64,000 nucleotides of DNA from Elusimicrobiota bacterium (GCA_016212825.1 JACRDS010000026.1:31413-95412), one strand, 5' to 3'; numbered from the stretch's first letter, positions 21,065 to 36,933 are shown. Notes: a model not told the origin generated them from the sequence alone. Translations and numbers: made by a program.

Positions 21065-21111
21065 TCCGGGGACACCCACTTATCTCCCGGATTGAGTGAG
21101 TGTCCCCGGAT
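21064..21111. terminator. 12-bp perfect inverted repeat between convergent rluD and the LysR gene. Putative bidirectional terminator
   Basis: ATCCGGGGACAC (21064-21075) pairs with GTGTCCCCGGAT (21100-21111) across a 24-nt loop. The repeat spans exactly from one stop codon to the other. Confidence 0.4.
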
Positions 21112-22004
21112 CAACTAGCCCCGGCCTGGCCGGCGCTGAGGTGCTTCAGGAAGGCCTTCACGGTGCGGTCCCCGCGCCGTATCTTGCGCACCAGGCAGCC
21201 CAGGGGCCGCGAGAGCTTCTGCCCCGAGAAGCGCCGCACGCACAGGCTGCCGGCCTTGGCCTCGGCCGCCACGGTCGCCGCCGGCACGATGGCCACCCCC
21301 ATCCCGGTGGAGACCGCGTTCTTGATGGTCTCGATGTTGTCGAGCTCCATGCGCACACGGGGCCGCACGCCCGCCCGGCGCAGGACCTTGTCCAGGGCCT
21401 TGCGCGTGGGCGTGCCCCGGTCGAAGGCGATGAAGTCCTGCCCGGCCAGGTCGGCCAGGGCCATGGAGCCCCGGCCGGCCAGGGCGTGGCTCCTGGGCAG
21501 GATGAGGACCAGCTCCTCGTCGTGGATCGGGATGACCTGCAGGTCGCGGCGCTTGACCGGGTAGGCCATTAGGCAGAGGTCCGCCCGCCCGCGCAGCAGG
21601 TCGCCGCAGATGCGGCTCGCCTTCTGGTATTCCACCTCCACCTTGACGTCGGGGTGGCGCTTGAGGAAACCCTTGAGGTAGCCCTGCAGGACGTAGGTGC
21701 CCACGCTGTAGATGGCCGCGATGCGTAGGCGCCGGGCCGCCTCGGGAGATTCGGAGTGGATGCGCGCGGTGACCTCCTCATAAGAGGAGACGATGCGCTT
21801 GGCCGCGCCGTAGAAGGCCCTGCCGGCGGGCGTCAGCTTGAGTCGGCGGCCGCCCCGCTCGAGCAGGGGCCGGCCCACGGAGCGCTCCAACTGCTGGAGC
21901 TGCTGGCTCACCGCGGACTGGGTCAGGTAGTTGAGCTCGGCGGCCCGGGAGAAGGAGCCCGTCTCGATGAGGTCCCGGAAGATGCGCAGGGATTCGAGGT
22001 GCAT
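21111..22004 (-). CDS. LysR-family transcriptional regulator
   Basis: N-terminal HTH FSRAAELNYLTQSAVSQQLQQLERSVGRPLLER and a C-terminal substrate-binding domain. Confidence 0.85.
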   Translation of the reverse strand: MHLESLRIFRDLIETGSFSRAAELNYLTQSAVSQQLQQLERSVGRPLLERGGRRLKLTPAGRAFYGAAKRIVSSYEEVTARIHSESPEAARRLRIAAIYSVGTYVLQGYLKGFLKRHPDVKVEVEYQKASRICGDLLRGRADLCLMAYPVKRRDLQVIPIHDEELVLILPRSHALAGRGSMALADLAGQDFIAFDRGTPTRKALDKVLRRAGVRPRVRMELDNIETIKNAVSTGMGVAIVPAATVAAEAKAGSLCVRRFSGQKLSRPLGCLVRKIRRGDRTVKAFLKHLSAGQAGAS

Positions 22005-22018: not shown

Positions 22019-22951
22019 TCAGCCGCCCGGTTCCCGGCCTGCGGGCCGGGCCAGTTGCGCCTTTTCCTTGGAGAGGCTGTCGAGGAAGGAGCGTGCCGCC
22101 GGGCTGGGCGGCCCGCCCTTGCGCACCACCGCGGCCACCGGCCGCAGCAGGCGCAGGCCCGAGAAGCGCGCGGCGTGGATCTTCCCGGTCACGATCTCGT
22201 TGCGCACCGCCGCCTCCGGGACGATGGAGACCCCGGTCCCGGCCTGGATGGCGCTCTTGATGGTCTCGATGTTGTCGAGCTCGAGCTTGACCGAGACCCG
22301 CACGTTGTGCGCGCGCAGCACCTTGTCCAGGGCGGCGCGGGTGGGGGCGGCTTCGTCGAAGGCGATGAAGTCCTTGCCGTCGAGCCGGGCCAGCTCCAGG
22401 CGGGGCTCCTGGGCGAGCTCGTGCTCCGGGTGGCAGGCCAGGACCAGCTCGTCGTCGTAGAGGGGGACGATCTCCACGCCGCGGCGGCGCGCGGGGTAGG
22501 CCAGGACCCCCAGGTCGGCCCGGTTGCGTATGATGTCGTCGTAGATCCGGCCCGCCTTCTGGTAGCTGACCGAGAACTTGACGTCCGGGTTGCGGCGGAT
22601 GAACCTCTGGATGTGCCCCTGCAGGACGTAGGTCCCCAGACTGTAGATGGTGGAGATGCGCACCGTGCTCGAGAGGCCCCCGGAGACCGTCTGGAGCTGG
22701 GCCAGGGTCTCGGCATAGGTCTCCAGGATGCGCTTGGCGGTGCGGTAGAAGACCAGGCCCGCGGGCGTCAGGGTCAGGCCGCGGTTGGAGCGGCTGAGCA
22801 GGATGCGGCCCAGGCTGACCTCCAGGTTCTTGATCTGGTGGCTGACCGCCGGCTGGGTGAGGAAGTTGAGCTCCGCCGCCTTGGAGAAGCTGCCGGTGTC
22901 CACGAGGTCCCGGTAGATCTTGAGGGTTTCCAGGAGCATGTCTGTAGGCAT
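22019..22951 (-). CDS. LysR-family transcriptional regulator (tandem paralog), divergent from the hdr/nuo/mvh locus
   Basis: HTH FSKAAELNFLTQPAVSHQIKNLEVSLGRILLSR. Parallel domain layout to the downstream LysR. It may start at the internal ATG at 22939. Confidence 0.85.
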   Translation of the reverse strand: MPTDMLLETLKIYRDLVDTGSFSKAAELNFLTQPAVSHQIKNLEVSLGRILLSRSNRGLTLTPAGLVFYRTAKRILETYAETLAQLQTVSGGLSSTVRISTIYSLGTYVLQGHIQRFIRRNPDVKFSVSYQKAGRIYDDIIRNRADLGVLAYPARRRGVEIVPLYDDELVLACHPEHELAQEPRLELARLDGKDFIAFDEAAPTRAALDKVLRAHNVRVSVKLELDNIETIKSAIQAGTGVSIVPEAAVRNEIVTGKIHAARFSGLRLLRPVAAVVRKGGPPSPAARSFLDSLSKEKAQLARPAGREPGG

Positions 22952-22971: not shown

Positions 22972-22990
22972 AAATGAAATCAATTCATTT
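22972..22990. promoter_or_regulatory. Putative LysR-type (T-N11-A) operator dyad in the divergent intergenic region
   Basis: AAATGAA-atcaa-TTCATTT, a 7-bp inverted repeat. It contains T-GAAATCAATTC-A (T-N11-A) and sits in an AT-rich 100-bp gap between the LysR gene and hdrC. Confidence 0.4.
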
Positions 22991-23017
22991 GCCGGGCTGC
23001 CGGGGCCGTAGTATCAT
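22989..23017 (+). promoter_or_regulatory. Candidate sigma70-like promoter for the hdr/nuo/mvh operon
   Basis: TTGCCG (22989-22994), a 17-nt spacer, then TATCAT (23012-23017). SD GGAGGG lies 7 nt before the hdrC ATG. Confidence 0.3.
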
Positions 23018-23055: not shown

Positions 23056-23661
23056 ATGACGACCGAAGGGGCATCAGTGCTGCCGGGAGAAGGGCCATTG
23101 CGCGTTCTGCCAGTATCGCGGGAGAGACTCCGTTTCATCGGGGACATCCGGCAGGAGGGCGGACAGGATGTCGGCTTGTGCTATCAATGCCGGAAGTGCA
23201 CCGCGGGGTGCCCCGTCGTCGATGAGATGGACCTGACTCCCACGCAGGTCATCCATGCGGTCCGCCTGGGGCTGCGCGATCTCGTCCTGGACAGCAAGAC
23301 CATATGGATCTGCGCGTCTTGCGAAACTTGCACGACCAGATGCCCGCAGGAGGTGGACATCGCCAGGGTCATGGATGCGGCCCGCATCCTGGCGCGCCGG
23401 GAGGGCCGGCGCCCGAGAATCCCTGAGGTCGCCGCTTTCCACAGATCCGTGCTCGAGAGCCTCCGGATGTTCGGAAGGCTTTACGAGTTGGGGGCGATCG
23501 GCGCGCTCAAGCTCAGGACCATGAGGTTGACCGAGGACCTCGACCTCGGGCTCAGGATGTTCAAGAAGGGCAAATTCCGATTCATCCCGGCATTCGCGAA
23601 CGTCCTGGCGACCAACAGGATCTTCCGGAGGGTCAAGAAGGCTGAGAGGGCAAGAACATGA
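23056..23661 (+). CDS. Heterodisulfide reductase subunit C-like protein (two [4Fe-4S] ferredoxin motifs)
   Basis: CYQCRKCTAGCPV and CASCETCTTRCPQ, with HdrC-like length and layout. Confidence 0.75.
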   Translation: MTTEGASVLPGEGPLRVLPVSRERLRFIGDIRQEGGQDVGLCYQCRKCTAGCPVVDEMDLTPTQVIHAVRLGLRDLVLDSKTIWICASCETCTTRCPQEVDIARVMDAARILARREGRRPRIPEVAAFHRSVLESLRMFGRLYELGAIGALKLRTMRLTEDLDLGLRMFKKGKFRFIPAFANVLATNRIFRRVKKAERART

Positions 23662-24539
23662 GGTTCGCATATTATCCCGGTTGCTCGCTTCATTCCACGG
23701 GCCGCGAGTACGACGCGTCTTTCCGGGAGGTGTGCGCCAGACTCGGCTTGGAGCCGGACGAGGTCGAAGGCTGGACCTGCTGCGGCGCTTCCAGCGCGCA
23801 TGCGACCTCGCGCCTTCTCTCGGTGGCGCTGGCCGCGGACAACCTCGCCCGCGTCGAGACCGCGGGTCACAAGGACGTCGTCGTGCCGTGCGCCTCGTGT
23901 TTTTCAAGGTTCAAGGACGCCACGCACGAGATCGAGAGCGATCCCGGCATGAAAGCCGAGATCGGCGGGATATTGGGACGGCCCTTCTCCAATTCCGTGA
24001 AAACCATCCACCCGCTGGAACTGCTGGATAAGATGGGAGAGGAGGGGAGGCTCGGGGCGGCGCCGGTCAAGGAGATGCCGGGAGTGAGGGCCGTCTGCTA
24101 CTACGGCTGCCTCTTGACGCGCCCTCCCAAGGTCACCCAATTCGACGATTGCGAGTACCCTATGAGCATGGATAGGCTGCTCGGGAGGTTCGGCGTGCGG
24201 ACGCTGGACTGGTCGTACAAGACCGACTGCTGCGGCGCCGGTTTTGGATTGACTAGGCCCGCGATAGTCTGCAAGCTGGTCAAGAAGATCCTGGACAATG
24301 CCTCGGCGGCGGGCGCCAATGTCGTGGCGGTCGCCTGTCCATTGTGCCATGCCAACCTGGATTCCAGACAGGCTGATTTGAACCGCGCCGGCGGCAACGG
24401 CGCAGGCCCAGGCGCGTACAAGATGCCGGTGCTCTACTTCACGCAGTTGATCGGGCTGGCCCTGGGCGCGGCGCCGGAGAGTCTGGGCCTGGGGAGCCAT
24501 CTGGTCGAGACCGCTCCAGTACTGGGAATGATGAGATGA
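23658..24539 (+). CDS. Heterodisulfide reductase subunit B-like protein (two CCG cysteine-rich domains)
   Basis: Motifs WTCCGAS...VVVPCASCF and DCCGAGFG...VACPLCHANL. Confidence 0.8.
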   Translation: MRFAYYPGCSLHSTGREYDASFREVCARLGLEPDEVEGWTCCGASSAHATSRLLSVALAADNLARVETAGHKDVVVPCASCFSRFKDATHEIESDPGMKAEIGGILGRPFSNSVKTIHPLELLDKMGEEGRLGAAPVKEMPGVRAVCYYGCLLTRPPKVTQFDDCEYPMSMDRLLGRFGVRTLDWSYKTDCCGAGFGLTRPAIVCKLVKKILDNASAAGANVVAVACPLCHANLDSRQADLNRAGGNGAGPGAYKMPVLYFTQLIGLALGAAPESLGLGSHLVETAPVLGMMR

Positions 24540-25453
24540 GCGAAGCAAAAACCAACGACGGGAAAATCGGAGCCGCTCTGGTCGTCGGCGGCGGCATAGG
24601 GGGAATGCAGGCGGCCCTGGATCTGGCCGACTCCGGCATCAAGGTCTATCTGGTCGACAAGGAACCGTCCATCGGCGGAGTCATGGCCAAGCTGGACAAG
24701 ACCTTCCCCACCAACGACTGCGCCATGTGCACGATGGCGCCCAGGCTCGTGGAGGTCGGCAGGAACAAGGATATCGAGATTATCTCGCTGGCCGATGTGG
24801 AGAATCTCAGCGGCGGACCTGGCAATTTCACGCTGACCTTGCGCAAGAAGCCGCGTTTCGTGAAGGAGGACAAATGCACCGGTTGCGGCACCTGCGTGAC
24901 GAATTGTCCCGTGCGAAACGAGATCTATCTGGACGTCAAGCTGGATGAGATAAAGCTTGAGGACGCGGATATGTCCAAGACGACGGCGATACTGGAACGG
25001 TACAAGGGCAGGAAAGAAGACCTGATCGCTATTTTGCAGGACATCAACGCCGAGTACAGGTATCTGCCGGAATTCGTGCTGAAATACATGGCGCGCAAGT
25101 TGGATGTGCCTTACAGCCAAGTATACAGCATCGCCACTTTCTACACCGCTTTCAGCCTGGTGCCCAAAGGGAAATACAAGATTTCCGTGTGCCTGGGAAC
25201 GGCCTGTCATGTCAGAGGGGCTCAGCGTATCATGGAGAGCCTGGAAAGAGAGCTGGATATCAAGAACGGGGGGACGACCAAGGACATGTTGTTCAGCCTG
25301 GAATCCGTCAGGTGCATCGGGTGCTGCGGTCTGGCTCCGGTTTTCGCGATCAACGAGGAGCTTTACGGAAAGGTCTCGCAGGGGAAGGTCCCGCAAATAA
25401 TCGAAAAATACCGGAAGGCGGAAGTCAAGGACAAGGCCTATGCAAAAACTTAA
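24536..25453 (+). CDS. Fusion protein. The N-terminal about 130 aa is the first half of a HdrA FAD-binding domain. The C-terminal about 170 aa is a NuoE/HoxE-like thioredoxin-fold [2Fe-2S] subunit
   Basis: GAALVVGGGIGGMQAALDLADSGIKVYLVDKEPSIGGVMAKLDKTFPTNDCAMC and CTGCGTCVTNCPV are HdrA N-terminal hallmarks. SVCLGTACHVRGA...VRCIGCCGLAPV carries the NuoE Cys pattern. Confidence 0.7.
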   Translation: MSEAKTNDGKIGAALVVGGGIGGMQAALDLADSGIKVYLVDKEPSIGGVMAKLDKTFPTNDCAMCTMAPRLVEVGRNKDIEIISLADVENLSGGPGNFTLTLRKKPRFVKEDKCTGCGTCVTNCPVRNEIYLDVKLDEIKLEDADMSKTTAILERYKGRKEDLIAILQDINAEYRYLPEFVLKYMARKLDVPYSQVYSIATFYTAFSLVPKGKYKISVCLGTACHVRGAQRIMESLERELDIKNGGTTKDMLFSLESVRCIGCCGLAPVFAINEELYGKVSQGKVPQIIEKYRKAEVKDKAYAKT

Positions 25454-25823
25454 GCCTGAGGATCTGGGCAAGATCAGCGAAAGGATGAAGGGCGTGGTCA
25501 ATCTGCGCGACGGCGCGTATTGCGCAAAGATCACCGTTCATATGGGGACATGCGGGATAGCCGCCGGCGCCCGGAAAGTGATGACGGCCCTTCTGGCCGT
25601 TGTGGCGGAGAAGGGGAACAAGGATGTCCTGGTCACGACTTCGGGCTGCGCCGGGCTGTGCGGCCGCGAACCGATGGCCACTGTCGAACTGCGGGGTGAG
25701 GCGCCCGTGAAATACGGCAACCTGGACGAGGCCAAGATTAAAGAGATCTTCGACCAGCATGTCCTGGGCAAGAAGATCGTGACTGAATACGCGATCGGCA
25801 TAGGCAGTGAAAGGGTTTCCTAA
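25440..25823 (+). CDS. Small thioredoxin-like [2Fe-2S] ferredoxin (HndB-like)
   Basis: 127 aa. VHMGTCGIAAGARKV...TSGCAGLCGREP. This is the position a HndB/HydB-N type protein usually occupies, between NuoE-like and NuoF-like genes. Confidence 0.6.
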   Translation: MQKLKPEDLGKISERMKGVVNLRDGAYCAKITVHMGTCGIAAGARKVMTALLAVVAEKGNKDVLVTTSGCAGLCGREPMATVELRGEAPVKYGNLDEAKIKEIFDQHVLGKKIVTEYAIGIGSERVS

Positions 25824-27627
25824 GGATACCGTGGGAAATACAACCAGGACTCATTTGATGGTCTGCGCGGGTACGGGCTGCGTTTCGGCCAAGTGCTTTA
25901 AAATCAAGGAAGCCTTGGAGCGCGAGCTCAAGAAACATGATCTTTGCGAAGAGGTGCAGATCGTCATGACCGGGTGCAACGGATTCTGCGCCCAGGGCCC
26001 GATCATGGTCGTGCAGCCCGAGGGCATCTTCTACAACATGCTCAAAGAGGAAGACATCCCGCATCTGGTCGCGGAGCACTTCCTGAAAGGACGGCCGGTA
26101 AAGAAGCTGATGTTCACCCCGCCTCAGGAAAAAGCCCCTGTCCCGCTGATGAAGGATATCGGGTTCTTCAGCAAACAGTCGCTGCTGATATTGAGAAACA
26201 GGGGTCTGATAGACCCTGAGAATATCGACGAGTATATCGCCAGGAACGGTTATGCCGCCTTCTCCAAAGCCGTGACCTCGATGGCGCCGGATGAAGTCAT
26301 CGCAGAGATCAGGAATTCCGGTCTGAGAGGCAGGGGCGGCGCCGGATTCCCTACCGCCAAGAAGTGGGAGCACTGCAGGCATGCCCCAGGAGAGCCGAAA
26401 TACATCATATGCAACGCCGACGAGGGCGACCCCGGCTGTTTCCAGGACAGGAGCATACTCGAGGGCGACCCGCATTCGGTGATCGAAGGCATGCTCATAG
26501 GGGCGTATGCGATAGGTTCAAGGCACGGGTATATCTATGTGCGGAATGAATATCCTCTGGCGATCAAGAGATTCTCGACAGCATTGAGCCAGGCGCGGCA
26601 ATACGGCCTGTTGGGCGATGATGTCCTGGGGACGAAATTTTCTTTTGACATCAGCATAAGCAGGGGGGCGGGCGCGTTCGTATGCGGAGAATCAAGCGCC
26701 TTGATGGCTTCCATCGAAGGCAAGATCGGGGAGCCGAGGTATAAGCATATCCACGCCACGGAGAAGGGGTTGTGGGATAAGCCGACCGTCCTGAATAATG
26801 TCAAGACCTGGGCCAGCGTCCCTTCGATCATAAGGCACGGCGCGGAGTGGTTCGCCAAGATCGGGACGGAGACTTCCAAGGGGACGATGGTCTTCTCGCT
26901 TGTGGGCAAGATCAAGAATACCGGGCTTATCGAGGTCCCGATGGGCATCTCGCTCAGGGAGATCATCTACGATATAGGAGAGGGTCTCATAGGCGACAGG
27001 AAATTCAAAGCGGTCCAGACCGGCGGGCCGTCAGGCGGATGCCTGCCTGAATCGTGCCTTGATTTGCCGGTGGATTACGAATCATTGACGGAGGCCGGCT
27101 CCATGATGGGTTCCGGCGGGATGATCGTGCTGGATGAAGACAACTGCATGGTGGACGTGGCGAGGTATTTCCTGGACTTTTTGAAGGGAGAATCCTGCGG
27201 CAAGTGCACGGCCTGCAGGGATGGCATCGAGGCGATGTACGAGTGTTTGAACGATATCTGCGAAGGGAAAGGGAAGGAGAAAGACATCGAGATGCTCGAG
27301 GAATTGGCCGGGGCAGTCAAGGATGCCTCCCTTTGCGGACTAGGCGCCTCAGCGCCCAATCCGGTTTTGAGCACGATACGCTACTTCCGGGACGAGTATG
27401 ACGCCCATATCCGGGACAAGAAGTGCCCTGCGGGAGTCTGCAAAGCGTTGATCCAATACTCCATAGATGCCGAGAAGTGCACCGGGTGCACGCTGTGCGC
27501 CAAGAAGTGCCCCAGCGAGGCGATCACCGGAGAGCGCAAGGCCAAGCATGCCATCGACCTGGAGAAGTGCATCAAGTGCGGCGTCTGCCGTGAGGTATGC
27601 AAATTCAAGGCGGTCGTGGTCAACTGA
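25807..27627 (+). CDS. NuoF-like NAD(H)-binding FMN/[4Fe-4S] flavoprotein. It has an N-terminal thioredoxin-like 2Fe-2S domain and a C-terminal 2x[4Fe-4S] ferredoxin domain (HndC/HydB-like)
   Basis: GLRGRGGAGFPTAKKW (NADH/FMN site), ESCGKCTACRDG (N3 cluster), and C-terminal CTGCTLCAKKCP / CIKCGVCREVC. The start is uncertain: GTG 25807 or ATG 25858. Confidence 0.85.
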   Translation: MKGFPKDTVGNTTRTHLMVCAGTGCVSAKCFKIKEALERELKKHDLCEEVQIVMTGCNGFCAQGPIMVVQPEGIFYNMLKEEDIPHLVAEHFLKGRPVKKLMFTPPQEKAPVPLMKDIGFFSKQSLLILRNRGLIDPENIDEYIARNGYAAFSKAVTSMAPDEVIAEIRNSGLRGRGGAGFPTAKKWEHCRHAPGEPKYIICNADEGDPGCFQDRSILEGDPHSVIEGMLIGAYAIGSRHGYIYVRNEYPLAIKRFSTALSQARQYGLLGDDVLGTKFSFDISISRGAGAFVCGESSALMASIEGKIGEPRYKHIHATEKGLWDKPTVLNNVKTWASVPSIIRHGAEWFAKIGTETSKGTMVFSLVGKIKNTGLIEVPMGISLREIIYDIGEGLIGDRKFKAVQTGGPSGGCLPESCLDLPVDYESLTEAGSMMGSGGMIVLDEDNCMVDVARYFLDFLKGESCGKCTACRDGIEAMYECLNDICEGKGKEKDIEMLEELAGAVKDASLCGLGASAPNPVLSTIRYFRDEYDAHIRDKKCPAGVCKALIQYSIDAEKCTGCTLCAKKCPSEAITGERKAKHAIDLEKCIKCGVCREVCKFKAVVVN

Positions 27628-27644
27628 CCCCGGCAAGGACAAGG

Positions 27645-27992
27645 ATGAAGCTCAGGGAGATCTGCGAGATACTGGAAGCGGACATCGTCCATGGGGAGGA
27701 TCCGGACCGGGAGATCGACAAGGTGGGGGCCGCAGACCTGATGAGCGATGTGCTGACCCACAGCACGCGGGGTTCGCTGCTGCTCACGGGCCTGACGAAT
27801 TCCCAGGTGATCCGCACCGCTGAGATGTCGGATATCGAGGCCGTTTGTTTCGTGAGGGGGAAAAGGCCGCAGGCCGGCGTCATAAAGCTTGGAGAGGAAA
27901 TGGGCATCCCCGTGCTGGTGACGAGATTCTCGATGTACGAAGCCTGCGGGAAGCTGTACATGAAAGGGCTGCGGGGCTGTGAGCATAATTAG
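27645..27992 (+). CDS. DRTGG domain protein
   Basis: DLMSDVLTHSTRGSLLLTGLTN...GIPVLVTRFSMYEACGKLY. This is the small regulatory protein typical of NuoEF-containing hydrogenase loci. Confidence 0.6.
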   Translation: MKLREICEILEADIVHGEDPDREIDKVGAADLMSDVLTHSTRGSLLLTGLTNSQVIRTAEMSDIEAVCFVRGKRPQAGVIKLGEEMGIPVLVTRFSMYEACGKLYMKGLRGCEHN

Positions 27993-27994
27993 GC

Positions 27995-28909
27995 ATGAAA
28001 GAGGTCACCAAGATCCAGGAGCTCGTGTACGAGCTGAGGATGCGGGACGTGATGAGGAAGGATGTGATCTCCGTCAGCCCCGACATGCAGATGGGCCGGT
28101 TGAGGGAATTGTTCAAGACCAAGCGCATATCCGGGACGCCCGTGGTCGACGGCGGCGGGCTGGTCGGGATCGTGAGCATAGAGGATTTCATCAAGTGGCT
28201 CTCCGGCGGCGGCGGGGAGTGCCGGATCTCCGAGAAGATGACGCGGCGGGTGGAGACGTTCTACGACGACGAGGCGCTGGTGCATGCCTTGACCAAGATG
28301 GAGAGATCCGGTTACGGCAGGTTCCCGATCATCGACCGGCAGACCGGCGGAATGTGCGGCATCGTGACCAAAGGGAACATCATCGAGGGTCTGCTCAAGA
28401 AGATCGAGATCGACTATCACGAGGAGGAGGTCCGCAAGTACCGGGCCAGCCACATCTTCGAGGACATCCGGGCGGACAAGTCCACGCTGATCTGTCAGTA
28501 CCGGATCGCCGGGAGGAAGTTGACCGAAGCGGGCGAGACCGCCAGCGGGCTGAAAACGACGTTGAAGAGGTTGGGCTTCCATCCGGACATCGTCAGGAGG
28601 TCCGCGATCATCGCCTATGAGGCGGAGACCAACGTCATCATCTATGCCAAGGAAGGGAAGATGATCGTGAAGGTGGAGCCGGCCGAGATATACATGAAGG
28701 TCGAAGACAAGGGCCCGGGCATCCCCGACGTCGAAAAAGTGCTGGAGCCCGGGTTTTCGACCGCCCCGGACTGGGTCAGGGAGCTCGGGTTCGGCGCCGG
28801 GATGGGGCTGCCCAATATCAAGAAGTGTTCGGATCGGATGGTCTTGAATTCCACCGTCGGCAAGGGCACCTGCCTTGAGGCGACCGTGGTCATAGGGCCG
28901 ACGCGATGA
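27995..28909 (+). CDS. CBS-pair plus histidine-kinase-like ATPase (anti-sigma-factor / Ser-protein-kinase-like) protein
   Basis: Two CBS motifs (VMRKDVISVSPD..., GRFPIIDRQTGGMCGIVTKGNII) and a C-terminal HATPase_c (VEDKGPGIPDVEKVLEPGFST...GAGMGLP). Confidence 0.7.
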   Translation: MKEVTKIQELVYELRMRDVMRKDVISVSPDMQMGRLRELFKTKRISGTPVVDGGGLVGIVSIEDFIKWLSGGGGECRISEKMTRRVETFYDDEALVHALTKMERSGYGRFPIIDRQTGGMCGIVTKGNIIEGLLKKIEIDYHEEEVRKYRASHIFEDIRADKSTLICQYRIAGRKLTEAGETASGLKTTLKRLGFHPDIVRRSAIIAYEAETNVIIYAKEGKMIVKVEPAEIYMKVEDKGPGIPDVEKVLEPGFSTAPDWVRELGFGAGMGLPNIKKCSDRMVLNSTVGKGTCLEATVVIGPTR

Positions 28910-29250
28910 AGCTGCAAAAGCTGATCGAGCGCATGGATCTCGAAGTGAGAAGCGGGCGCGGCGCTCCGGATGTGGAAATCCGCCGCGGCTACGTGAGCGA
29001 TCTGTTGAGCGACGTCATCGCGCATGCTCAAGAGGCTGAGTTGTGGATCACGCTTCAGACGCACGTCAACATCGTGGCCGTGGCCAGCATGAAAGGTCTG
29101 GCCGGCATCATCTTGGTCCAAGGCCGGGAGCCGGAGCGGGCCACGGTCGAGAGGGCGGAAAAGGAAAAAGTCCCCATTCTGGTCACGAAACTTCCCGCTT
29201 ATGAAATGGCAGGGAAGCTCTATGACCTGCTGAATGCTGAAAAGGGTTAG
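28906..29250 (+). CDS. DRTGG domain protein (second copy)
   Basis: VSDLLSDVIAHAQEAELWITLQTHVN...VPILVTKLPAYEMAGKLY, parallel to the first DRTGG protein. Confidence 0.6.
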   Translation: MKLQKLIERMDLEVRSGRGAPDVEIRRGYVSDLLSDVIAHAQEAELWITLQTHVNIVAVASMKGLAGIILVQGREPERATVERAEKEKVPILVTKLPAYEMAGKLYDLLNAEKG

Positions 29251-29977
29251 AGGCGATTTGCATATCCACACTTGTTTGTCCCCATGCGCCGATGACGGGA
29301 TGACGCCCGCCGCCATCGTCAGGGAGGCGCGGAGGAAGCAGGTGGGGTTGGTCGGCATCTGCGACCATAATTCCATGGAGAATGTGGAAGCGGTGATGAG
29401 GGCGGGCGAACGGGAGAATGTCGGGGTCTTGGGCGGGATGGAGATCACAAGCAAAGAGGAAGTGCATATCCTGGCCGTCTGTGATGGCCTGGCCCCGCTG
29501 GGCAACATGCAGAAGACCTTGTATGAGCACCTGGAGGGAGAGAACGACGAAAGCAGGTTCGGCCCGCAGGACATCGTCAACGAATTCGATGAGAAGACCG
29601 GCTCGAACAGCAGGCTCTTGATCGGCGCCACGGATCTGGGCATCCAGAACGTGGTCGAGTTGATCCGCAGCGCCGGGGGGCTGGCGATCGCCTCGCACAT
29701 CGACAGGGAGGGCTTCAGCATCATGTCCCAGCTGGGTTTCATACCCGAGTCGCTGCGTCTTGACGGCTTGGAAGTGTCTCCCCTGACCACGGTCGAGGCG
29801 GCGCGGCGGAGATTCCCGGATATCGGCAAGTACCCTTTGCTGCGCTCGTCGGATGCGCATTCCCTGGGCGACATCGGGAGGCAGACCACGACGTTCCTGG
29901 TGGCGGATATGAGTTTCGCCGAGATCCGGAAGGCGCTGGCGGGAGAGGATGGCAGAAGGATCGAATATCAGGCCTGA
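29234..29977 (+). CDS. PHP-domain phosphoesterase
   Basis: The N-terminus DLHIHTCLSPCAD plus downstream His/Asp motifs (ICDHNSMEN, IASHIDREG, SSDAHS). Confidence 0.7.
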   Translation: MLKRVRGDLHIHTCLSPCADDGMTPAAIVREARRKQVGLVGICDHNSMENVEAVMRAGERENVGVLGGMEITSKEEVHILAVCDGLAPLGNMQKTLYEHLEGENDESRFGPQDIVNEFDEKTGSNSRLLIGATDLGIQNVVELIRSAGGLAIASHIDREGFSIMSQLGFIPESLRLDGLEVSPLTTVEAARRRFPDIGKYPLLRSSDAHSLGDIGRQTTTFLVADMSFAEIRKALAGEDGRRIEYQA

Positions 29978-29983
29978 GCGGAT

Positions 29984-30445
29984 TTGGAAGACCTATCTTT
30001 GCATGTTCTTGATATCGCTGAAAACTCGATCAGGGCGCTCGCGGAGAATGTCGTGATCAGGATCATCGAGGAGCCCGGGAAGGACCTGCTCACCCTGGAG
30101 ATCGAAGACGACGGACAAGGGATGGATGAGGGACTGCTCGAGAAGGCGCTGGATCCGTTCTTCACGACCAAGGCCGGCAAGAGGGTGGGGCTGGGGCTTC
30201 CGCTTTTGAGCCAGGCGGCCAGGGCCGGCGGAGGAGATATGCAGATCGAATCCGGGCCCGGAGCGGGCACCCGGATAAGGGCCACATTCAGATACAGCCA
30301 TCCTGACAGAAAGCCTTTGGGGGATATGCCGGCCACCATGCGGGCTTTGATGGCCGCAAATCCGGCCGTGAATTTCGTGTTTGTGCACAAGAAAGAGGGC
30401 GAAACGCACCGCGTAGAGAGCCGCGAAATGGGGTCCCAAGGATAA
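29984..30445 (+). CDS. Stand-alone histidine-kinase-like ATPase (HATPase_c) protein
   Basis: EIEDDGQGMDEGLLEKALDPFFTTK...GLGLPL. TTG start with an upstream SD. Confidence 0.6.
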   Translation: MEDLSLHVLDIAENSIRALAENVVIRIIEEPGKDLLTLEIEDDGQGMDEGLLEKALDPFFTTKAGKRVGLGLPLLSQAARAGGGDMQIESGPGAGTRIRATFRYSHPDRKPLGDMPATMRALMAANPAVNFVFVHKKEGETHRVESREMGSQG

Positions 30446-30448
30446 CCA

Positions 30449-33400
30449 ATGGCGAGTTCGAACATGAAGACGGATTTCATCATCAATGGGAAAGAGGCGT
30501 CGGTCGAGGGGGCGGCTACGGTGCTGGAGGCCTGCGCGAAACTGAGCCTGAAGATACCGACGCTCTGCGCGCACAAGGCGCTGCTCCCGTACGGAGCCTG
30601 CAGGCTCTGCCTGGTGGAGATCGGCAAGCCCCCCTACGGCAAGATCCAGACGGCGTGCACTTACCCCCTGAAGCCGGGGCTGGTCGTCTCCACGGACACG
30701 GAAAGGATCATGAAAGCCAGGAAGATCGTAATGGAACTCCTCCTGGCCAGGTGCCCGGATGTGAAGGCGATACAAGATCTGGCCGGAGAGCTCGGAGTCG
30801 CCGGCACGAGGTTCCACAAGAAGGACAGCGACTGCATACTGTGCGGCATGTGCATCAGGGTCTGCCGGGAACGGATGGGGGTCGAGGCATTGGGCTTCGC
30901 CAACCGGGGTTCCAAGAGAGAAGTGAGGCCTCCTTTCGACGCCCTCTCCGAGTTCTGCCAGGCCTGCGGCGCCTGTGAATTCATATGTCCGACGGGAAAG
31001 ATGAAGGTGCTGGAGGTGGGAAGAAGGGCGGCGCGGCCGATACCTTTCGAATTCAACGAGGGCTTGATCTCCAGGCCCGCGGTGCATATTCCCTACCCCC
31101 AGGCCGTCCCCAACAAGGCCGCGCTGGACGGCAGGTACTGCGTCCGCCTGCTGAAGGACAAATGCGGAATATGCCAGGTGTTCTGCGAAGCCGGCGCGAT
31201 AGACTATGAGCAGAAAGAGGAGCGCATCGAGTTGAAGGCGGGCGCCGTGATCCTGGCTCCGGGATTCGAGCTCTTCGACGCCAAGCTCAAGGGTGAGTTG
31301 GGTTACGGACGCTATCCCAACGTCATCACGAGCCTGGAGTTCGAGCGGATATTGAACGCCTCCGGGCCGTTCTCGGGCAAGGTGCTCAGGCCTTCCGACC
31401 GGCGCCATCCCAAGAAGATCGCCTTCATCCAATGCGTCGGGTCCCGGGATTGCGACAACAACTATTGCTCCTCCGTGTGCTGTATGTATGCGACCAAGGA
31501 AGCCATCATCGCGATGGAACACGAGAAGGGCCTGGAGTGCGCCATCTTCTTCATCGACCTGAGGGCATTCGGCAAGGGGTTCGACGCCTATTATGAGCGG
31601 GCCAAGAAGGCCGGCGTGAGGTATGTCCGATGCCGTCCGTCTTCCATCAAGGAGGACCCCTCAAGCCGGGATCTGGAAGTGAGGTACGAGGCCGAGGACG
31701 GGACGGTGGTGTCCGAGGGGTTCGATCTCGTGGTGCTTTCCAGCGGACTCAGACCCACGCGGGAAGCCCGGGATATGGCCAAGACCTTCGGCCTGTCCCT
31801 CAATGAGCACGGTTTCTGCAGGACTGGGACGTTCGCCCCGGTGGAGACGGGGCGCGCGGGGGTCTACGTGTGCGGGCCGTTCACGGAGCCCAAAGACATC
31901 CCGGAAACGGTCATGCAGGCCAGTGCCGCCGCGGCCAAGACTTTGTCCCTGCTGTCGTCGGCGCGGGGTTCGCTGATCGAGCCCAAGGGATTCCCCCCGG
32001 AGAAGGATGTCTCCGGGCGGCCGCCCAGGATCGGAGTCTTCGTCTGCCACTGCGGCACCAATATCGCGGGCGTGGTCAATGTGCCGGAAGTCGTCGAGTA
32101 TGTGAAGGGATTGCCGGATGTGGCCTATGCCGAGAACGATCTCTACACCTGCTCGAACGATGCTCAAGAAAGGATCAAGCAGTTGGTCCGGGAGCACGAT
32201 TTGAATCGGGTCGTGGTGGCGTCCTGCACGCCCAGGACGCACGAGCCCCTGTTCCGGAACACCATCCGGGAAGCGGGCGTGAATCCGTATCTTTTCGAAA
32301 TGGCCAATATCAGGGACCAATGCTCGTGGGTCCACATGCACGAGCCGGAGCAGGCCACGCGCAAGGCCAAGGACCTTCTGCGGATGGCCATCGCCAAGGC
32401 CCGGCTCCTGGAGCCGCTCCAGCGCCGGACCATGAAGGTCCATCCCGACGCCCTCGTGATCGGAGGGGGGGTGAGCGGCATGACCGCCGCGCTCGACATG
32501 GCGAAGCAGGGCATCACGGTGCACCTGGTGGAGCGCGAAGGCGCGCTCGGCGGCGGCCTGCGCAGGACGAGATACCTTCTGGATGGAGAGGACCCCAAGG
32601 GCGAGCTCGACCGACTGGTGGCGAACGTGCTCGGAGAGAAGCTGATCCGGGTCCATCTGAATTCCAAGATCGTCGCGATGGAGGGAAGCTGGGGCAATTT
32701 CAAGACGAAGGTCTCGGGCGTCGGCAACGGCGGCGCGGCGGAGTTCGGCCATGGCGTGGTGGTGGTGGCGACCGGCGCGCGGGAATACCAGCCTCAGGAG
32801 TATCTCTACGGGAAGGATGAGAGGGTGACGACCCAGCTCGAGCTGGAGTCCCTCATCGCGGACGGCAAGTTCAGGGCGAAATCCGTGGTGATGATCCAGT
32901 GCGTCGGTTCCCGGAACGATGAGCATCCCTATTGCAGCAGGGTCTGCTGCACCGAGGCGGTGAAAAACGCCCTGAAGATCAAGGCCACGAGCCCCGACTC
33001 CGAGGTGTACGTCCTTTATAGGGACGTCCGGACCTACGGCTTCCGCGAGCAGTACTATCGTCAGGCCCGGGAGAAGGGCGTGGTCTTCCTGCGCTACGAC
33101 GACGACAAAAAACCCGCGGTCGAGGTCAAGGAAGGCGGATTGCAGGTCTCTGCTTTCGACCCCATACTCAAGACGACCGTCTCCATCGACGCGGACCTGC
33201 TGGTCCTCTCGGCGGGGATCGTCGCCAATCCCGACAGCGCCGAGGTGGGGCAGATGCTGAAGGTGCCCTTGAACCAGGACAAGTTCTTCTTGGAAGCGCA
33301 CATGAAGCTGAGGCCCGTGGATTTCGCGAGCGATGGGATATTCCTCTGCGGCCTGGCGCATTCGCCGAAGGATCTGACCGAGTGCCTGATGCAGGCCAGC

Positions 33401-33751
33401 GGCGCCGCCGCGAGGGCCTCGGCGGTGGCGCTCAAGGGCAGCGTCGAGCTCGAGGCCAACGTTTCCCGGGTCCTCGACGAGAACTGCGACGGCTGCGCCT
33501 ATTGCGTGGACCCTTGCCCGTACAAGGCCATCACGCTCATCGAATACATGTTCAACGGCGCCATCAAGAAGACGGTGGAAGCCAACGAGAGCGTGTGCAA
33601 GGGCTGCGGGGTCTGCCAGGCCACCTGCCCCAAGAAGGGCATCGCCATAATGGGCTTCAGGCTGGAGCAGATATCCGCCATGGCCGAGGCCGCCCTGCAG
33701 GCGGGCGGAGCGCCGAGCGGAAAACCGGCCGAAGAGCTCGTGCGGCAGTAG
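30449..33751 (+). CDS. 1,100-aa multi-domain iron-sulfur flavoprotein. It has a NuoG/HydA-N-like 2Fe-2S plus [4Fe-4S] module, then the C-terminal half of a HdrA FAD domain, then a second complete HdrA-like unit with a C-terminal 2x[4Fe-4S] domain
   Basis: FIINGKEASVEGAATVLEACAKLSLKIPTLCAHKALLPYGACRLCLVEI (2Fe-2S). CILCGMCIRVC / CQACGACEFICP. IAFIQCVGSRDCDNNYCSSVCCMYATKEA (HdrA signature). DALVIGGGVSGMTAALDMAKQG (FAD-binding motif). VVMIQCVGSRNDEHPYCSRVCCTEA (second HdrA signature). CDGCAYCVDPCP / CKGCGVCQATCP. Confidence 0.8.
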   Translation: MASSNMKTDFIINGKEASVEGAATVLEACAKLSLKIPTLCAHKALLPYGACRLCLVEIGKPPYGKIQTACTYPLKPGLVVSTDTERIMKARKIVMELLLARCPDVKAIQDLAGELGVAGTRFHKKDSDCILCGMCIRVCRERMGVEALGFANRGSKREVRPPFDALSEFCQACGACEFICPTGKMKVLEVGRRAARPIPFEFNEGLISRPAVHIPYPQAVPNKAALDGRYCVRLLKDKCGICQVFCEAGAIDYEQKEERIELKAGAVILAPGFELFDAKLKGELGYGRYPNVITSLEFERILNASGPFSGKVLRPSDRRHPKKIAFIQCVGSRDCDNNYCSSVCCMYATKEAIIAMEHEKGLECAIFFIDLRAFGKGFDAYYERAKKAGVRYVRCRPSSIKEDPSSRDLEVRYEAEDGTVVSEGFDLVVLSSGLRPTREARDMAKTFGLSLNEHGFCRTGTFAPVETGRAGVYVCGPFTEPKDIPETVMQASAAAAKTLSLLSSARGSLIEPKGFPPEKDVSGRPPRIGVFVCHCGTNIAGVVNVPEVVEYVKGLPDVAYAENDLYTCSNDAQERIKQLVREHDLNRVVVASCTPRTHEPLFRNTIREAGVNPYLFEMANIRDQCSWVHMHEPEQATRKAKDLLRMAIAKARLLEPLQRRTMKVHPDALVIGGGVSGMTAALDMAKQGITVHLVEREGALGGGLRRTRYLLDGEDPKGELDRLVANVLGEKLIRVHLNSKIVAMEGSWGNFKTKVSGVGNGGAAEFGHGVVVVATGAREYQPQEYLYGKDERVTTQLELESLIADGKFRAKSVVMIQCVGSRNDEHPYCSRVCCTEAVKNALKIKATSPDSEVYVLYRDVRTYGFREQYYRQAREKGVVFLRYDDDKKPAVEVKEGGLQVSAFDPILKTTVSIDADLLVLSAGIVANPDSAEVGQMLKVPLNQDKFFLEAHMKLRPVDFASDGIFLCGLAHSPKDLTECLMQASGAAARASAVALKGSVELEANVSRVLDENCDGCAYCVDPCPYKAITLIEYMFNGAIKKTVEANESVCKGCGVCQATCPKKGIAIMGFRLEQISAMAEAALQAGGAPSGKPAEELVRQ

Positions 33752-33754
33752 GAG

Positions 33755-34213
33755 ATGATCATGGCTGAGACAGTGATGGAGCAGGAACAGCAGGCGGAGA
33801 TCCTCAATCCGGACCCGGTGGTCATCGCCTTCTGCTGCAATTGGTGCTCCTACACCGGCGCGGACCTGGCCGGGACCTCCCGGCTCCAGTATCCGCCCCA
33901 GATCCGCATCATCCGGGTCATGTGTTCGGGCATGGTGCACCCCAACCTGGTCATAGACGCCCTGACCAAGGGCGCCGACGGCGTGATGATCTGCGGCTGC
34001 CACCTGGGCGACTGCCATTACATAGACGGCAACTACAAGACCGAGAAGCGGGCCGATGCCATCAAGCTCATGTTGGAGGACTTCGGCCTGGAGCCCGAGC
34101 GCTTCCGCCTGGAGTGGGTCTCCGCGTCGGAGGGCCCGAAGTTCGCCCAAGTCATGACCGACATGGTCGCGGCCTTGAAAAGGCTGCCGCCGAGCTCCTA
34201 CAAGGTGGGGTGA
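33755..34213 (+). CDS. mvhD: MvhD-like hydrogenase/heterodisulfide reductase iron-sulfur subunit
   Basis: IAFCCNWCSYTGADLAG...IRVMCSGMV...DGVMICGCHLGDCHY. The likely start is ATG 33761. Confidence 0.8.
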   Translation: MIMAETVMEQEQQAEILNPDPVVIAFCCNWCSYTGADLAGTSRLQYPPQIRIIRVMCSGMVHPNLVIDALTKGADGVMICGCHLGDCHYIDGNYKTEKRADAIKLMLEDFGLEPERFRLEWVSASEGPKFAQVMTDMVAALKRLPPSSYKVG

Positions 34214-34218
34214 GCGTT

Positions 34219-34416
34219 ATGACCCAGAGCGCGAGATTCTTCGACGACAAGAAGTTCATGTGGGATGGGAAAGTCTACGAGGGACGCTCGGAGGCCGAGG
34301 AGTCCGAGCGGGGCTACAGGAAGGACGCCTTTGAGACGCGGGTCGTGGAGGACGGCGGGAAGTTCCTGGTCTATTCCCGCCGGGTGGCCGCCCAGCAGAC
34401 GGCCGTAGAGGGATAA
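34219..34416 (+). CDS. Small hypothetical protein (65 aa) between mvhD and the hydrogenase small subunit gene
   Basis: ATG 34219 has an upstream GGTGGGG. It reads MTQSARFFDDKKFMWDGKVYEGRSE... and has no recognisable motif. The track shows it only as the tail of a longer overlapping ORF. Confidence 0.3.
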   Translation: MTQSARFFDDKKFMWDGKVYEGRSEAEESERGYRKDAFETRVVEDGGKFLVYSRRVAAQQTAVEG

Positions 34417-34438
34417 ACTGTTAAGGAGGGAGAATAGA

Positions 34439-35413
34439 ATGCCTGTGAAAGTCGCGGAGGAATGGCTTAACATCTGCGGTGGCTGCGAGGTCAGCATACT
34501 CGACATCGGCGAGCCGCTCTTGGACCTGCTGCCGAACCTGGAGTTCGTGCACATGCCCGTGCTCATGGACCACAAGTACCACGGCCAGACCGGCGAGGGC
34601 GATCCGCACAAGATCGACATCCCGGACGCGGACGTGGGCATCATCTCCGGCGGCATCCGCAACGAGAAGGAGAAGCAGGTCGCCCTGGCGATGCGGGCCA
34701 AGTGCAAGACCGTGGTGGCCCTGGGCTCCTGCGCCTGCTACGGCGGCATCCCGGCTTTGGCCAACATGTGGTCCCTGACCGACATGTGCGACAAGGTCTA
34801 CAAGGACAGCAAGTCCACGGAGAAGGCCGACACGCCCAAGACCGACCTGCCGCCGCTCCTGGACCGCGTCTACGCCCTCGACGAGGTCATCAAGGTGGAC
34901 CTGGCCATCCCGGGCTGCCCCACCTCCTCGGACTGGATCAAGGAAGCCCTGCTCTCCTTGCTCTCGGGCAAGCCCTTCGCCATGCCGGATAAGTCCGTGT
35001 GCGACGAGTGCCCGACCAAGCGCGAGAAGAAGGCCTCCGGCGGCACTATCAAGCGGCCCCTGGAGAACATGGCCTTCAAGCAGGACGCGCCCTGGGAGGA
35101 GACCCGCTGCTTCATGGAGCAGGGCTACCTGTGCCTGGGCCCGGTGACCCGGGCCGGCTGCGCGGGCATGAGCATGGAGGCGGGCGAGGCCAAGGTGCCG
35201 CGCTGCATCAAGGGCTACATGCCCTGCCGGGGCTGCTTCGGCCCGGTCAAGAAGGGCTCCAACCCGCTCGTGGACATGATGGGCGCGCTGTCCTCCATCG
35301 GCCTCAAGGCCGACCAGGTCAGCGACCGCCGCGCCATGCTCAGCCGCTACGTGGGCGGCCACGGCATGCTCAAGCCGCTTCCGGCCAAGGCGCCGGCGCC
35401 GGTGAAGAAGTAG
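34439..35413 (+). CDS. mvhG: [NiFe] hydrogenase small subunit (group 3, MvhG-like)
   Basis: NICGGCEVS, LGSCACYGGIP, GCPTSSDW and the C-terminal Cys cluster CRGCFGP. Confidence 0.85.
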   Translation: MPVKVAEEWLNICGGCEVSILDIGEPLLDLLPNLEFVHMPVLMDHKYHGQTGEGDPHKIDIPDADVGIISGGIRNEKEKQVALAMRAKCKTVVALGSCACYGGIPALANMWSLTDMCDKVYKDSKSTEKADTPKTDLPPLLDRVYALDEVIKVDLAIPGCPTSSDWIKEALLSLLSGKPFAMPDKSVCDECPTKREKKASGGTIKRPLENMAFKQDAPWEETRCFMEQGYLCLGPVTRAGCAGMSMEAGEAKVPRCIKGYMPCRGCFGPVKKGSNPLVDMMGALSSIGLKADQVSDRRAMLSRYVGGHGMLKPLPAKAPAPVKK

Positions 35414-35435
35414 GGACTTCTCAGGAGGCACTGCA

Positions 35436-36881: not shown

Positions 36882-36933
36882 GGCAAGAGTACGGGGGTGC
36901 CCGCCCTGGCGGGCGGGCGCCCCGCCCCTTGAT

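Follow-up and report, generated by a model that had tools for sequence, protein, structure and literature searches.

A cassette of DRTGG, kinase, PHP and ATPase genes accompanies NuoE/HydD/NuoF modules in many bacterial phyla and may form a signalling system with interchangeable sensors

Introduction

NuoE and NuoF (HydC and HydB) form the NADH entry or exit of flavin-based electron-bifurcating hydrogenases, formate dehydrogenases (FDH) and Hdr-type complexes. Here we describe a five-gene cassette at positions 27,645 to 30,445 of a 64,000-nucleotide stretch of DNA from an Elusimicrobiota bacterium (GCA_016212825.1 JACRDS010000026.1:31413-95412), which was analysed at its full length and is called the window below. 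The cassette encodes two small DRTGG-domain proteins (DRTGG1 and DRTGG2), a kinase fused to a pair of CBS domains, a PHP phosphoesterase and a stand-alone ATPase of the histidine-kinase type. It accompanies the NuoE/HydD-like/NuoF module and not any particular catalytic partner, by a link that is strong and not obligatory, and the sensor of its kinase is interchangeable, being either the CBS pair or a group-D sensory [FeFe] hydrogenase.

Gene organization of the locus

The cassette lies within a single close-packed row of plus-strand genes that runs from an HdrC-like gene to HycI (23056-37455):

23056..24539, plus strand: HdrC-like protein and HdrB with two CCG domains (Pfam), at the operon start
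24536..25453, plus strand: N-terminal FAD piece of HdrA and Fer4 fused to NuoE (2Fe-2S; Pfam 2Fe-2S_thioredx, E=8e-51)
25440..25823, plus strand: HydD/HndB-like thioredoxin-like 2Fe-2S protein, 127 aa (PDB match, E=3e-13)
25807..27627, plus strand: HydB-type NuoF with the FMN/NADH site (Pfam Complex1_51K, NADH_4Fe-4S and two Fer4)
27645..27992, plus strand: DRTGG1, 115 aa (Pfam DRTGG, 33.1 bits, E=5e-8)
27995..28909, plus strand: CBS pair, linker helix and SpoIIAB-like GHKL kinase, 304 aa (Pfam, PDB and AlphaFold2 (AF2) model)
28906..29250, plus strand: DRTGG2, 114 aa (Pfam DRTGG, 27.2 bits, E=4e-6)
29234..29977, plus strand: PHP phosphoesterase, 247 aa (Pfam PHP, 29.1 bits against a cut-off of 26.4)
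29984..30445, plus strand: stand-alone histidine-kinase-type ATP-binding domain of the 'HydE' type, 153 aa, TTG start (HATPase_c, 58.2 bits, E=1e-15)
30449-33751, plus strand: NuoG-N::HdrA, 1100 aa (Pfam; NCBIfam HdrA2, E=1e-252)
33755-37455, plus strand: MvhD, [NiFe] small subunit, [NiFe] large subunit and HycI protease (Pfam)

A first-pass annotation, made from the sequence alone, had named the five domains of the cassette and placed it between the NuoF-like and NuoG-N::HdrA genes of a [NiFe] Mvh-type locus. All five assignments exceed the Pfam gathering scores, and the Pfam families of the flanking genes agree with this placement. The ATG at 27645 is the right start of DRTGG1: the alternative, a longer open reading frame (ORF) from 27597, runs into NuoF, whose stop is at 27627. 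The window NuoF (nuoF_fam in NCBIfam, E=9e-142) has an N-terminal thioredoxin-like 2Fe-2S domain and C-terminal 2x[4Fe-4S], and the product of 24536..25453 gives partial NCBIfam matches to HdrA2 and HoxE/NuoE. The 127-aa protein (25440-25823) has no Pfam match, and its PDB matches are the N-terminal domain of HoxF/NfnB-type subunits.

From NuoF onwards the gene junctions measure +17, +2, -4, -17, +6 and +3 nt. Within 21-39 kb, promoter- and terminator-like sites do not exceed their frequency in shuffled sequence; one promoter-like site precedes the HdrC-like gene (22989-23017), at a frequency equal to chance expectation. Because the junctions are short and internal promoters and terminators show no excess, the cassette can be read as co-transcribed with the redox genes on either side, and on this sequence evidence it almost certainly shares one transcript with them.

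Distribution and genomic partners

Two sets of loci were collected. A kinase-anchored pattern scan of one genome per GTDB species gave at least 589 stretches with relatives, and the best 80 were fetched; a second 80 came from a metagenome scan with a four-sequence ATPase alignment, representing a distant branch of the family, for a total of 160 loci. Genes in the loci were called as six-frame ORFs, named by their phmmer similarity to the window proteins and spot-checked against Pfam. The order DRTGG1-kinase-DRTGG2-PHP(-ATPase) is repeated in dozens of loci spread over more than 12 phyla (Planctomycetota, Chloroflexota, Cloacimonadota, Bipolaricaulota, Fidelibacterota, Gemmatimonadota, Nitrospirota, Acidobacteriota, Bacteroidota, Atribacterota, Thermotogota, Verrucomicrobiota, Spirochaetota and others), so the arrangement is not due to chance.

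NuoE, the HydD-like protein and NuoF are all encoded in 34 of the 39 genome loci that have at least 6 kb upstream and at least 8 kb downstream. The two groups of genes are also interleaved: the HydD-like gene stands between NuoE and NuoF in 55/80 loci, the stand-alone ATPase often separates NuoE from the HydD-like gene, and the entire cassette does so in L053. This co-occurrence and interleaving define a conserved neighbourhood of eight genes. The catalytic partners vary: HdrCB...NuoG-N::HdrA-MvhD-[NiFe], as in the window; a NuoG-like protein with small [NiFe] subunits, which may resemble Acetomicrobium mobile HydABCSL; [FeFe] HydA (L036, L066, L071 and L077); molybdopterin/FDH-like subunits (L049 and L055); NuoF::GltD fusions; and Rnf operons (L001, L021, L053 and L077). 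In a Nitrospirota locus (L033), the order is nuoA-nuoB-nuoD-[five cassette genes]-nuoE-HydD-like-nuoF-nuoG-nuoH.

The first-pass annotation knew the cassette from [FeFe] hydrogenase and formate dehydrogenase loci, and both settings were recovered, the former in L036, L066, L071, L077, L131 and L137-L139 and the latter in the molybdopterin/FDH-like loci L049 and L055. Its central inference was that the cassette travels with the NuoEF module. The varied partner enzymes beside a constant NuoE, 2Fe-2S protein and NuoF support this inference and widen it well beyond hydrogenases; what does not hold is an obligatory link, because orphan cassettes exist. The presence of the cassette in a [NiFe]/Hdr locus is thus one case of a general rule and not an oddity.

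Cassettes unlinked to NuoEF take several forms. Loci of the Sphaerochaeta/Pleomorphochaeta/Treponema type have kinase-DRTGG2-PHP only, among housekeeping genes. In Thermotoga sp. KOL6 the order is RseC-DRTGG-kinase-DRTGG-PHP-gltX, in Kosmotoga olearia and Pseudothermotoga thermarum a five-gene operon lies between thyX and bamA, and in Thermosipho melanesiensis only the kinase is present. As a genus, Thermotoga encodes a HydABC enzyme at another site in the genome. In Anaerolineales (L014/L015), DRTGG1-kinase(-DRTGG2) adjoins [NiFe] genes that look group-3b-like by gene order and N-terminal sequences, with no NuoEF. These cases show the cassette to be a self-standing unit, usually encoded beside NuoEF and sometimes apart from it.

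Among the 27 ATPase-anchored loci with at least 5 kb upstream, the PHP gene is present in 25, a CBS-type kinase in 12 and a CBS-less kinase in 7; another pattern, DRTGG2-ATPase-PHP only, occurs in 7/27. One of them (L160) has only NuoE-ATPase-HydD-NuoF-HydA, the Acetobacterium woodii type, and several shorter contigs are alike. No DNA-binding, STAS or sigma-factor family is found among the 25 commonest families of the 143 neighbouring ORFs of L001-L080. Response_reg is found in 4/143 of these ORFs (4 loci), and genes for Rex-type repressors (Put_DNA-bind_N and CoA_binding) lie less than 3.5 kb from the cassette in 4 loci.

Several loci have features of their own. In L033, part of a metagenome-assembled genome, the complex I operon (6853-18774) carries the cassette just before nuoE and the HydD-like gene just after it, and other NuoD-containing loci (L030, L043, L047 and L061) are similar. 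In L001 (2211-13006), L021 (95-8704) and L053, rnf genes (RnfC, RnfD and RnfE/A) are joined to NuoE-HydD-like-NuoF and the cassette, and L021 also has an RnfB::GltD-like fusion; such an Rnf-NuoEF combination is not known to have been described. A Fidelibacterota locus (L012:16992-19076) has a NuoG-like 2Fe-2S N-terminus fused to an amidohydrolase, downstream of NuoE-HydD-like-NuoF and the cassette. Two tandem NuoE-NuoF pairs precede one hydrogenase in L038, L041, L048-L052, L054, L056, L066 and L077; the pair on the cassette side has the ATPase, the HydD-like gene and a full-length HydB-type NuoF, and the second NuoF is without the C-terminal ferredoxin domain. In Cloacimonadota, L016 has an extra cysteine-rich ORF of 118 aa between the kinase and DRTGG2 (10899-11255), and L008 and L013 have a gap of ~270-330 bp at this position.

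A sensor swap on the cassette kinase

In the [FeFe]-type loci the kinase is without CBS domains, comprises ~148 aa with HATPase_c_2 only, and is 44% identical to the kinase domain of the window, including the GFGAGMGLPN motif. The gene directly after it encodes a HydS-like protein of 416-478 aa, with two Fer4, Fe_hyd_lg_C and a C-terminal 'FeS' (4-Cys) domain, and is followed by DRTGG2 (36% identical to that of the window), PHP (34%) and the ATPase. Across the 160 loci, a HydS-like gene lies directly downstream of 0/88 CBS-type kinases with downstream room and of 13/15 CBS-less kinases. The CBS pair and the sensory hydrogenase are thus alternative inputs to the same kinase, and nothing else argues as strongly for a signalling role of the cassette as this exchange of sensors.

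The HydS-like proteins keep the four H-cluster cysteines. TSCCP is replaced by x(S/A/Y/V)CP with loss of the proton-relay cysteine (C299), MPC (Met353) by (S/T)PC in 10/11 proteins and by QC in L151, and ExMxC by ExxAC (xSC in one). Land et al. 2020 (PMC8163306) give a missing proton-relay cysteine, combined with a hydroxyl residue in the place of Met353, as the signature of the putative sensory enzymes of M2e/group D, including TamHydS. The same paper places TamHydS upstream of a bifurcating HydABC and beside an ATPase called 'histidine kinase-like', and raises the question of how the signal of TamHydS is passed on (Land et al. 2020, PMC8163306). By position, the ATPase so described is the CBS-less orthologue of the window kinase; the two DRTGG genes and the PHP gene were not met in the passages of that paper found by keyword (PMC8163306). 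The window differs from the TamHydS locus in that the group-D (M2e) HydS-like gene is absent and a CBS pair fused to the kinase stands in its place. An Elusimicrobia preprint (10.1101/765248) describes a HATPase domain to which a group-C hydrogenase 'seems to be fused'.

Proteins of the cassette

None of the five proteins is covered by a curated NCBIfam family at a score that exceeds the cut-off of the family. The CBS::kinase protein (27995-28909) contains two CBS domains (84.6 bits) and matches HATPase_c (36.4) and HATPase_c_2 (32.7) in Pfam. In a PDB sequence search it matches SpoIIAB at E=2e-7. The AF2 model, with a predicted local distance difference test (pLDDT) score of 83.9, shows the CBS pair, then a long helix from residue 126 to 161, and at the C-terminus a domain that aligns by Foldseek over the whole of SpoIIAB (1TIL_E; target-normalised TM-score 0.84, root-mean-square deviation 2.2 A, 24% identity). 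Among 57 homologues (34-83% identity) the N box (E209..N213), the G1 box (D238xGPG) and the G2 box (GFGAGMGL) are invariant. The model thus presents the kinase half as SpoIIAB-like GHKL, of the serine-kinase/anti-sigma type, and the anti-sigma likeness given to this ATPase by the first-pass annotation is borne out at the structural level. CBS pairs bind adenosine ligands. The Foldseek neighbours of the CBS half are CBS pairs solved with AMP, S-adenosylmethionine (SAM), cyclic di-AMP (c-di-AMP) or diadenosine tetraphosphate (Ap4A), and the ribose/phosphate positions S61, D64, T125 and K126 are invariant in the same 57 homologues.

DRTGG1 and DRTGG2 both exceed the Pfam PF07085 cut-off of 25.2 bits and are paralogous (25-31% identical). 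The match to AF_1212 (2IOJ) is weak, and the canonical GGDR loop is replaced by TGLTN and TLQTH. In DRTGG1, D31, S34, T48, Q54 and T58 are conserved in 60-63/63 homologues; in DRTGG2, D32, S35, T49, H53 and N55 are invariant in 71/71. A D-L-x-S motif and a threonine are thus invariant in both, and the T-x-Q-x-H-x-N motif, with His53, is invariant in DRTGG2 alone. Judged by the alignments, these conserved residues would lie at the ends of beta-strands, the usual ligand site of alpha/beta folds.

The metal ligands of the PHP protein, H10, H12, D44, H45, E70, H155, D207 and H209, are kept in 60-61/61 homologues, and H78 in 58/61. Among the 50 fold matches listed for its AF2 model (pLDDT 92.5), the closest is the catalytic PHP domain of EndoQ (E=3e-15, 22% identity); the TM-score is 0.78 when query-normalised and 0.49 when target-normalised, only the PHP domain being aligned. 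The next matches, at ~0.55-0.59, are TM0559, BAD_1165, RNase AM, Cv1693 and other PHP phosphoesterases. No protein phosphatase of the CpsB/YwqE type appears in the PDB sequence matches at E<=1 or in the 50 Foldseek matches listed. The first-pass annotation thought a phosphatase mechanism plausible; the PHP protein is closer to the nuclease-type PHP of EndoQ than to the known protein phosphatases. Identity with Endonuclease Q itself was rejected, the window protein having 247 aa against about 400 aa and no Zn-finger or C-terminal domains, as was identity with the PHP protein-tyrosine phosphatases CpsB/YwqE, for which there is no sequence match or listed fold match. Cys18 (in the HxHTCLSPC motif) adjoins the metal-binding histidines and is invariant (61/61); it may serve as an additional metal ligand or respond to redox conditions. 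Conservation of Cys14 and Cys43 is limited to the closer relatives of the window protein.

In PDB and NCBIfam the stand-alone ATPase best matches AtoS/ZraS-type sensor kinases, in their catalytic domains, and it has a 'DPFFTTK' F-box. The N, G1 and G2 boxes are intact, with N14, D42xGxG46, G69LG71 and G95T96 conserved, and a C-terminal motif, H106xD108..P111xG113, is specific to the family. An exhaustive HMMER search with this query gave about 1860 representative clusters at E<=1e-10, mostly of 150-200 aa. The ATPase is the part of the cassette most tightly tied to NuoE/NuoF. Homologues fused to PHP (PHP + PHP_C + HATPase_c; junction '...GRRI..MEDLSLHILDI') occur in four distinct 50%-identity clusters (P0379, P0381, P0430 and P0465), and their PHP part is 37% identical to that of the window.

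A relative of this ATPase is already in the literature. The hydrogenase operon of A. woodii is hydC-hydE-hydD-hydB-hydA1, and the HydE-type protein, for which an 'assembly or signalling' role was suggested, was not found in the purified hydrogenase (PMC3315566). Matched by description, hydE and the window ATPase share the same domain and the same gene neighbours (NuoE-, HydD- and NuoF-like) (PMC3315566), and an A. woodii-like order, NuoE-ATPase-HydD-NuoF, occurs in many of the related loci, [FeFe] ones included. The published A. woodii operon has five genes, none of them DRTGG, kinase or PHP; hydE lies between the NuoE-like and HydD-like genes whereas the window ATPase follows PHP, and the partner is an [FeFe] hydrogenase in A. 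woodii and a [NiFe]/Hdr complex in the window.

Two sub-modules within the cassette

A fused DRTGG1::kinase protein of 269 aa, in which Pfam recognises both domains, is encoded in one locus (L131). Co-variation was assessed by distance-matrix (mirror-tree) correlation in the 41 loci carrying all eight genes, which gives weak evidence at the level of ranking. The cassette proteins correlate mutually at r=0.63-0.79, and NuoE, HydD and NuoF at 0.50-0.70. After removal of the common signal the top residual pairs are DRTGG1-kinase (0.58) and DRTGG2-ATPase (0.52); all within-block residual pairs are positive because the background control mixes both blocks. Taken together, the fusions, the reduced forms of the cassette and the co-variation suggest two sub-modules, [DRTGG1 + sensor-kinase] and [DRTGG2 + ATPase + PHP].

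Other features of the window

Two tandem LysR-family genes on the minus strand (21111-22004 and 22019-22951) are divergent from the operon and are candidate transcriptional regulators of the locus. The GC content at third codon positions (GC3) is 0.72-0.89 from HdrC to NuoG-N::HdrA (23056-33751), cassette included, against 0.91-0.97 for the flanking genes as well as for MvhD, both [NiFe] subunits and HycI; overall GC dips to 0.57-0.63. This lower GC3 and GC dip suggest that the Hdr/NuoEF/cassette block may have been acquired horizontally and joined to more ameliorated Mvh genes. HdrA is split in the window, with the FAD-binding N-terminal piece and Fer4 on NuoE and the remainder behind a NuoG-like N-terminus, and both fusions are seen again in L002, L004, L006, L007, L009, L019 and L024-L026. 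In the family of the 127-aa protein, Cys38, Cys70 and Cys74 are kept in 47/56 homologues; Cys28 of the window protein, the fourth cysteine, is not conserved, so cluster binding in the HydD/HndB-like family is uncertain. Near the start of the window there is an ORF of 3491 aa (1427-11902; GC3 0.95).

Comparison with known signalling systems

The cassette shares with the SpoIIAB/RsbW modules a small GHKL kinase, small alpha/beta partners, a phosphoesterase and an attached sensor input. However, the partners are STAS proteins (SpoIIAA/RsbV) in those modules and DRTGG proteins in the cassette, and the hydrolase is PP2C (SpoIIE/RsbU) in the former and PHP in the latter. The cassette further differs in having no sigma factor among the 25 commonest families in cis, in its extra histidine-kinase-type ATPase and in its genomic link to a redox module. 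A classical STAS/PP2C partner switch was accordingly rejected: the GHKL domain is present, and the STAS antagonist and PP2C are missing from the cassette. A two-component system was also rejected, there being no HisKA/DHp (dimerization and histidine phosphotransfer) domain and no receiver domain in the cassette.

In family II pyrophosphatases with a CBS-DRTGG-CBS insert, a CBS pair and DRTGG sense adenine nucleotides including Ap4A; in the cassette, DRTGG is a separate protein in which the canonical GGDR motif is missing. A kinase is the fusion partner of the CBS pair in the cassette, and a DHH hydrolase or an ACT domain in family II pyrophosphatases or AcuB-type adaptors. The PHP protein has in common with the EndoQ/TrpH type (RNase AM and Cv1693) the complete metal-binding set, but unlike EndoQ it lacks the Zn ribbon and the C-terminal DNA-binding domain, has a GHKL ATPase as fusion partner and occurs in a context unrelated to DNA repair. 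With the H2-sensing HoxBC-HoxJ-HoxA system the cassette shares only the functional idea, namely that hydrogen metabolism is controlled by a kinase to which a dedicated sensor is coupled. There is no architectural homology; the cassette has no PAS/HisKA kinase and no response regulator, and the output of the Hox system is transcriptional.

Possible functions of the cassette

We give about even odds to the general reading, in which the cassette works in signalling and its function is tied to that of the NADH flavoprotein module; any single step of its action is much less sure. A more specific and less probable version is a system that resembles a partner switch, with DRTGG in the place of STAS, PHP in the place of PP2C, an extra histidine-kinase-type ATPase and plug-in sensors (the CBS pair for the adenylate or Ap4A state, or a group-D HydS for H2), which would act post-translationally on the HydB/HydC-type module. 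Several observations weigh against these readings. The stand-alone ATPase is a catalytic domain only, with no DHp or other histidine-bearing partner domain, and the closest fold to PHP is EndoQ, CpsB/YwqE-type enzymes not being among the 50 fold matches listed. Correlations between the cassette and NuoE/HydD/NuoF are lower (r=0.17-0.65), and the two form separate co-variation blocks. The orphan cassettes and the lone kinase (Thermotoga sp. KOL6, Kosmotoga, Pseudothermotoga, Sphaerochaeta-like loci and Thermosipho) point the same way, and cassettes unlinked to NuoEF make a more general target possible. The frequencies are biased, the 80+80 loci being the best-scoring pattern-scan matches and no unbiased census, and divergent members may escape labelling, as with DRTGG1/PHP in Verrucomicrobiota and Thermosipho.

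The SpoIIAB likeness of the kinase half, its best match in sequence and fold, could instead indicate a transcriptional partner switch, in which the SpoIIAB-like domain sequesters a sigma factor or regulator encoded in trans, DRTGG serves as anti-anti-sigma factor and expression of the operon is controlled. The orphan cassettes of Thermotogota and Spirochaetota fit such a trans-acting target. We consider this unlikely: sigma-factor and STAS families are lacking among the 25 commonest of the 143 neighbouring ORFs, the cassette sits between structural genes inside the very operons it would regulate, and separate transcription factors are nearby, namely the two LysR genes in the window and Rex in 4 loci. 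The partner-switch mechanism that the first-pass annotation thought plausible is thus favoured by the fold of the kinase, but not by the commonest families encoded in cis. An improbable alternative, partly compatible with the post-translational signalling model, is a nucleotide-messenger circuit in which PHP would cleave a small nucleotide (pAp, Ap4A or a dinucleotide, cyclic or linear), the receptor would be the CBS pair with DRTGG in trans and the ATPases would be effectors. Where characterised, EndoQ and the next PHP matches, RNase AM and Cv1693 among them (the latter with AMP and phosphate in its structure), act on or bind nucleic acids or nucleotides; the structural neighbours of the CBS pair bind AMP, SAM, c-di-AMP and Ap4A; CBS-pyrophosphatases need DRTGG in order to respond to Ap4A (PMC7705103); and the conserved DRTGG residues are predicted at a usual ligand site. 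On the other hand, PHP and the two DRTGG proteins are retained in the HydS-type cassette, which has no CBS pair, the cassette contains no gene for a nucleotide cyclase or synthase, and the fusion of PHP to a kinase-type ATPase fits an opposing kinase/phosphatase pair equally well.

The absence of the HydE-type protein from the purified A. woodii enzyme and the 'assembly or signalling' role suggested for it (PMC3315566) also accord with assembly or maturation factors that would help to insert FMN or Fe-S, or to dock the NuoE/HydD/NuoF module, with no regulation. GHKL ATPases include chaperones, and the ATPase gene often lies between NuoE and the HydD-like gene. A swappable sensor, CBS or sensory hydrogenase, is nevertheless a hallmark of signalling and not of maturation, orphan cassettes lie far from any NuoEF gene, and loci of the A. 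woodii type work with the ATPase alone, which leaves assembly quite unlikely. An unrelated passenger, such as an anti-phage or stress module, is scarcely credible. The PHP protein shows weak similarity, over part of its length, to the PHP domains of Ppl and TrlF, which are defence-type proteins, but the sole PADLOC match, to that of Ppl, is weak (18.8 bits, E=8.5e-5), and the synteny with NuoE/HydD/NuoF extends over more than 12 phyla with tight operon packing. An anti-phage defence identity, with this single weak match behind it, was rejected.

Under the post-translational signalling model, the CBS pair would report the adenine-nucleotide or energy state, H2 being the input in the HydS version. 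CBS-pyrophosphatases with a DRTGG domain respond to Ap4A, and those without DRTGG do not (PMC7705103); by analogy, the CBS pair may sense together with a DRTGG protein in trans. The state of the sensor would set the ATP-dependent activity of the SpoIIAB-like domain towards DRTGG1, by phosphorylation or binding, or the choice of partner of this domain. The histidine-kinase-type ATPase would act on or with DRTGG2, in which Ser35 or His53 are candidate acceptor or ligand-binding residues, and PHP would remove the phosphoryl or phosphodiester mark. The output would be post-translational control of the activity or assembly of the NuoE/HydD/NuoF module, which in the window feeds an HdrABC-MvhADG-type [NiFe] complex.

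Implications

All parts of the cassette belong to known domain families, and its logic resembles partner switching. The literature already contains two of its components in passing, the HydE-type gene (2012) and the 'histidine kinase-like ATPase' beside TamHydS (2020). No description of the DRTGG/kinase/PHP part was found in full-text literature searches. The enzymes served by NuoEF-type modules have a central place in anaerobic energy conservation, and the engineering of H2 and biofuel production takes them as targets. The analysis points to a conserved set of candidate regulators of these enzymes, with interchangeable sensors. The cassette also bears on the question raised by Land et al. 2020 about the signal output of PAS-less group-D hydrogenases. 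If the model is true, the cassette would provide the missing signal route for PAS-less sensory [FeFe] hydrogenases, and would gate bifurcating hydrogenases, Hdr complexes, formate dehydrogenases, Rnf-linked modules and some complex I variants by energy charge or H2.

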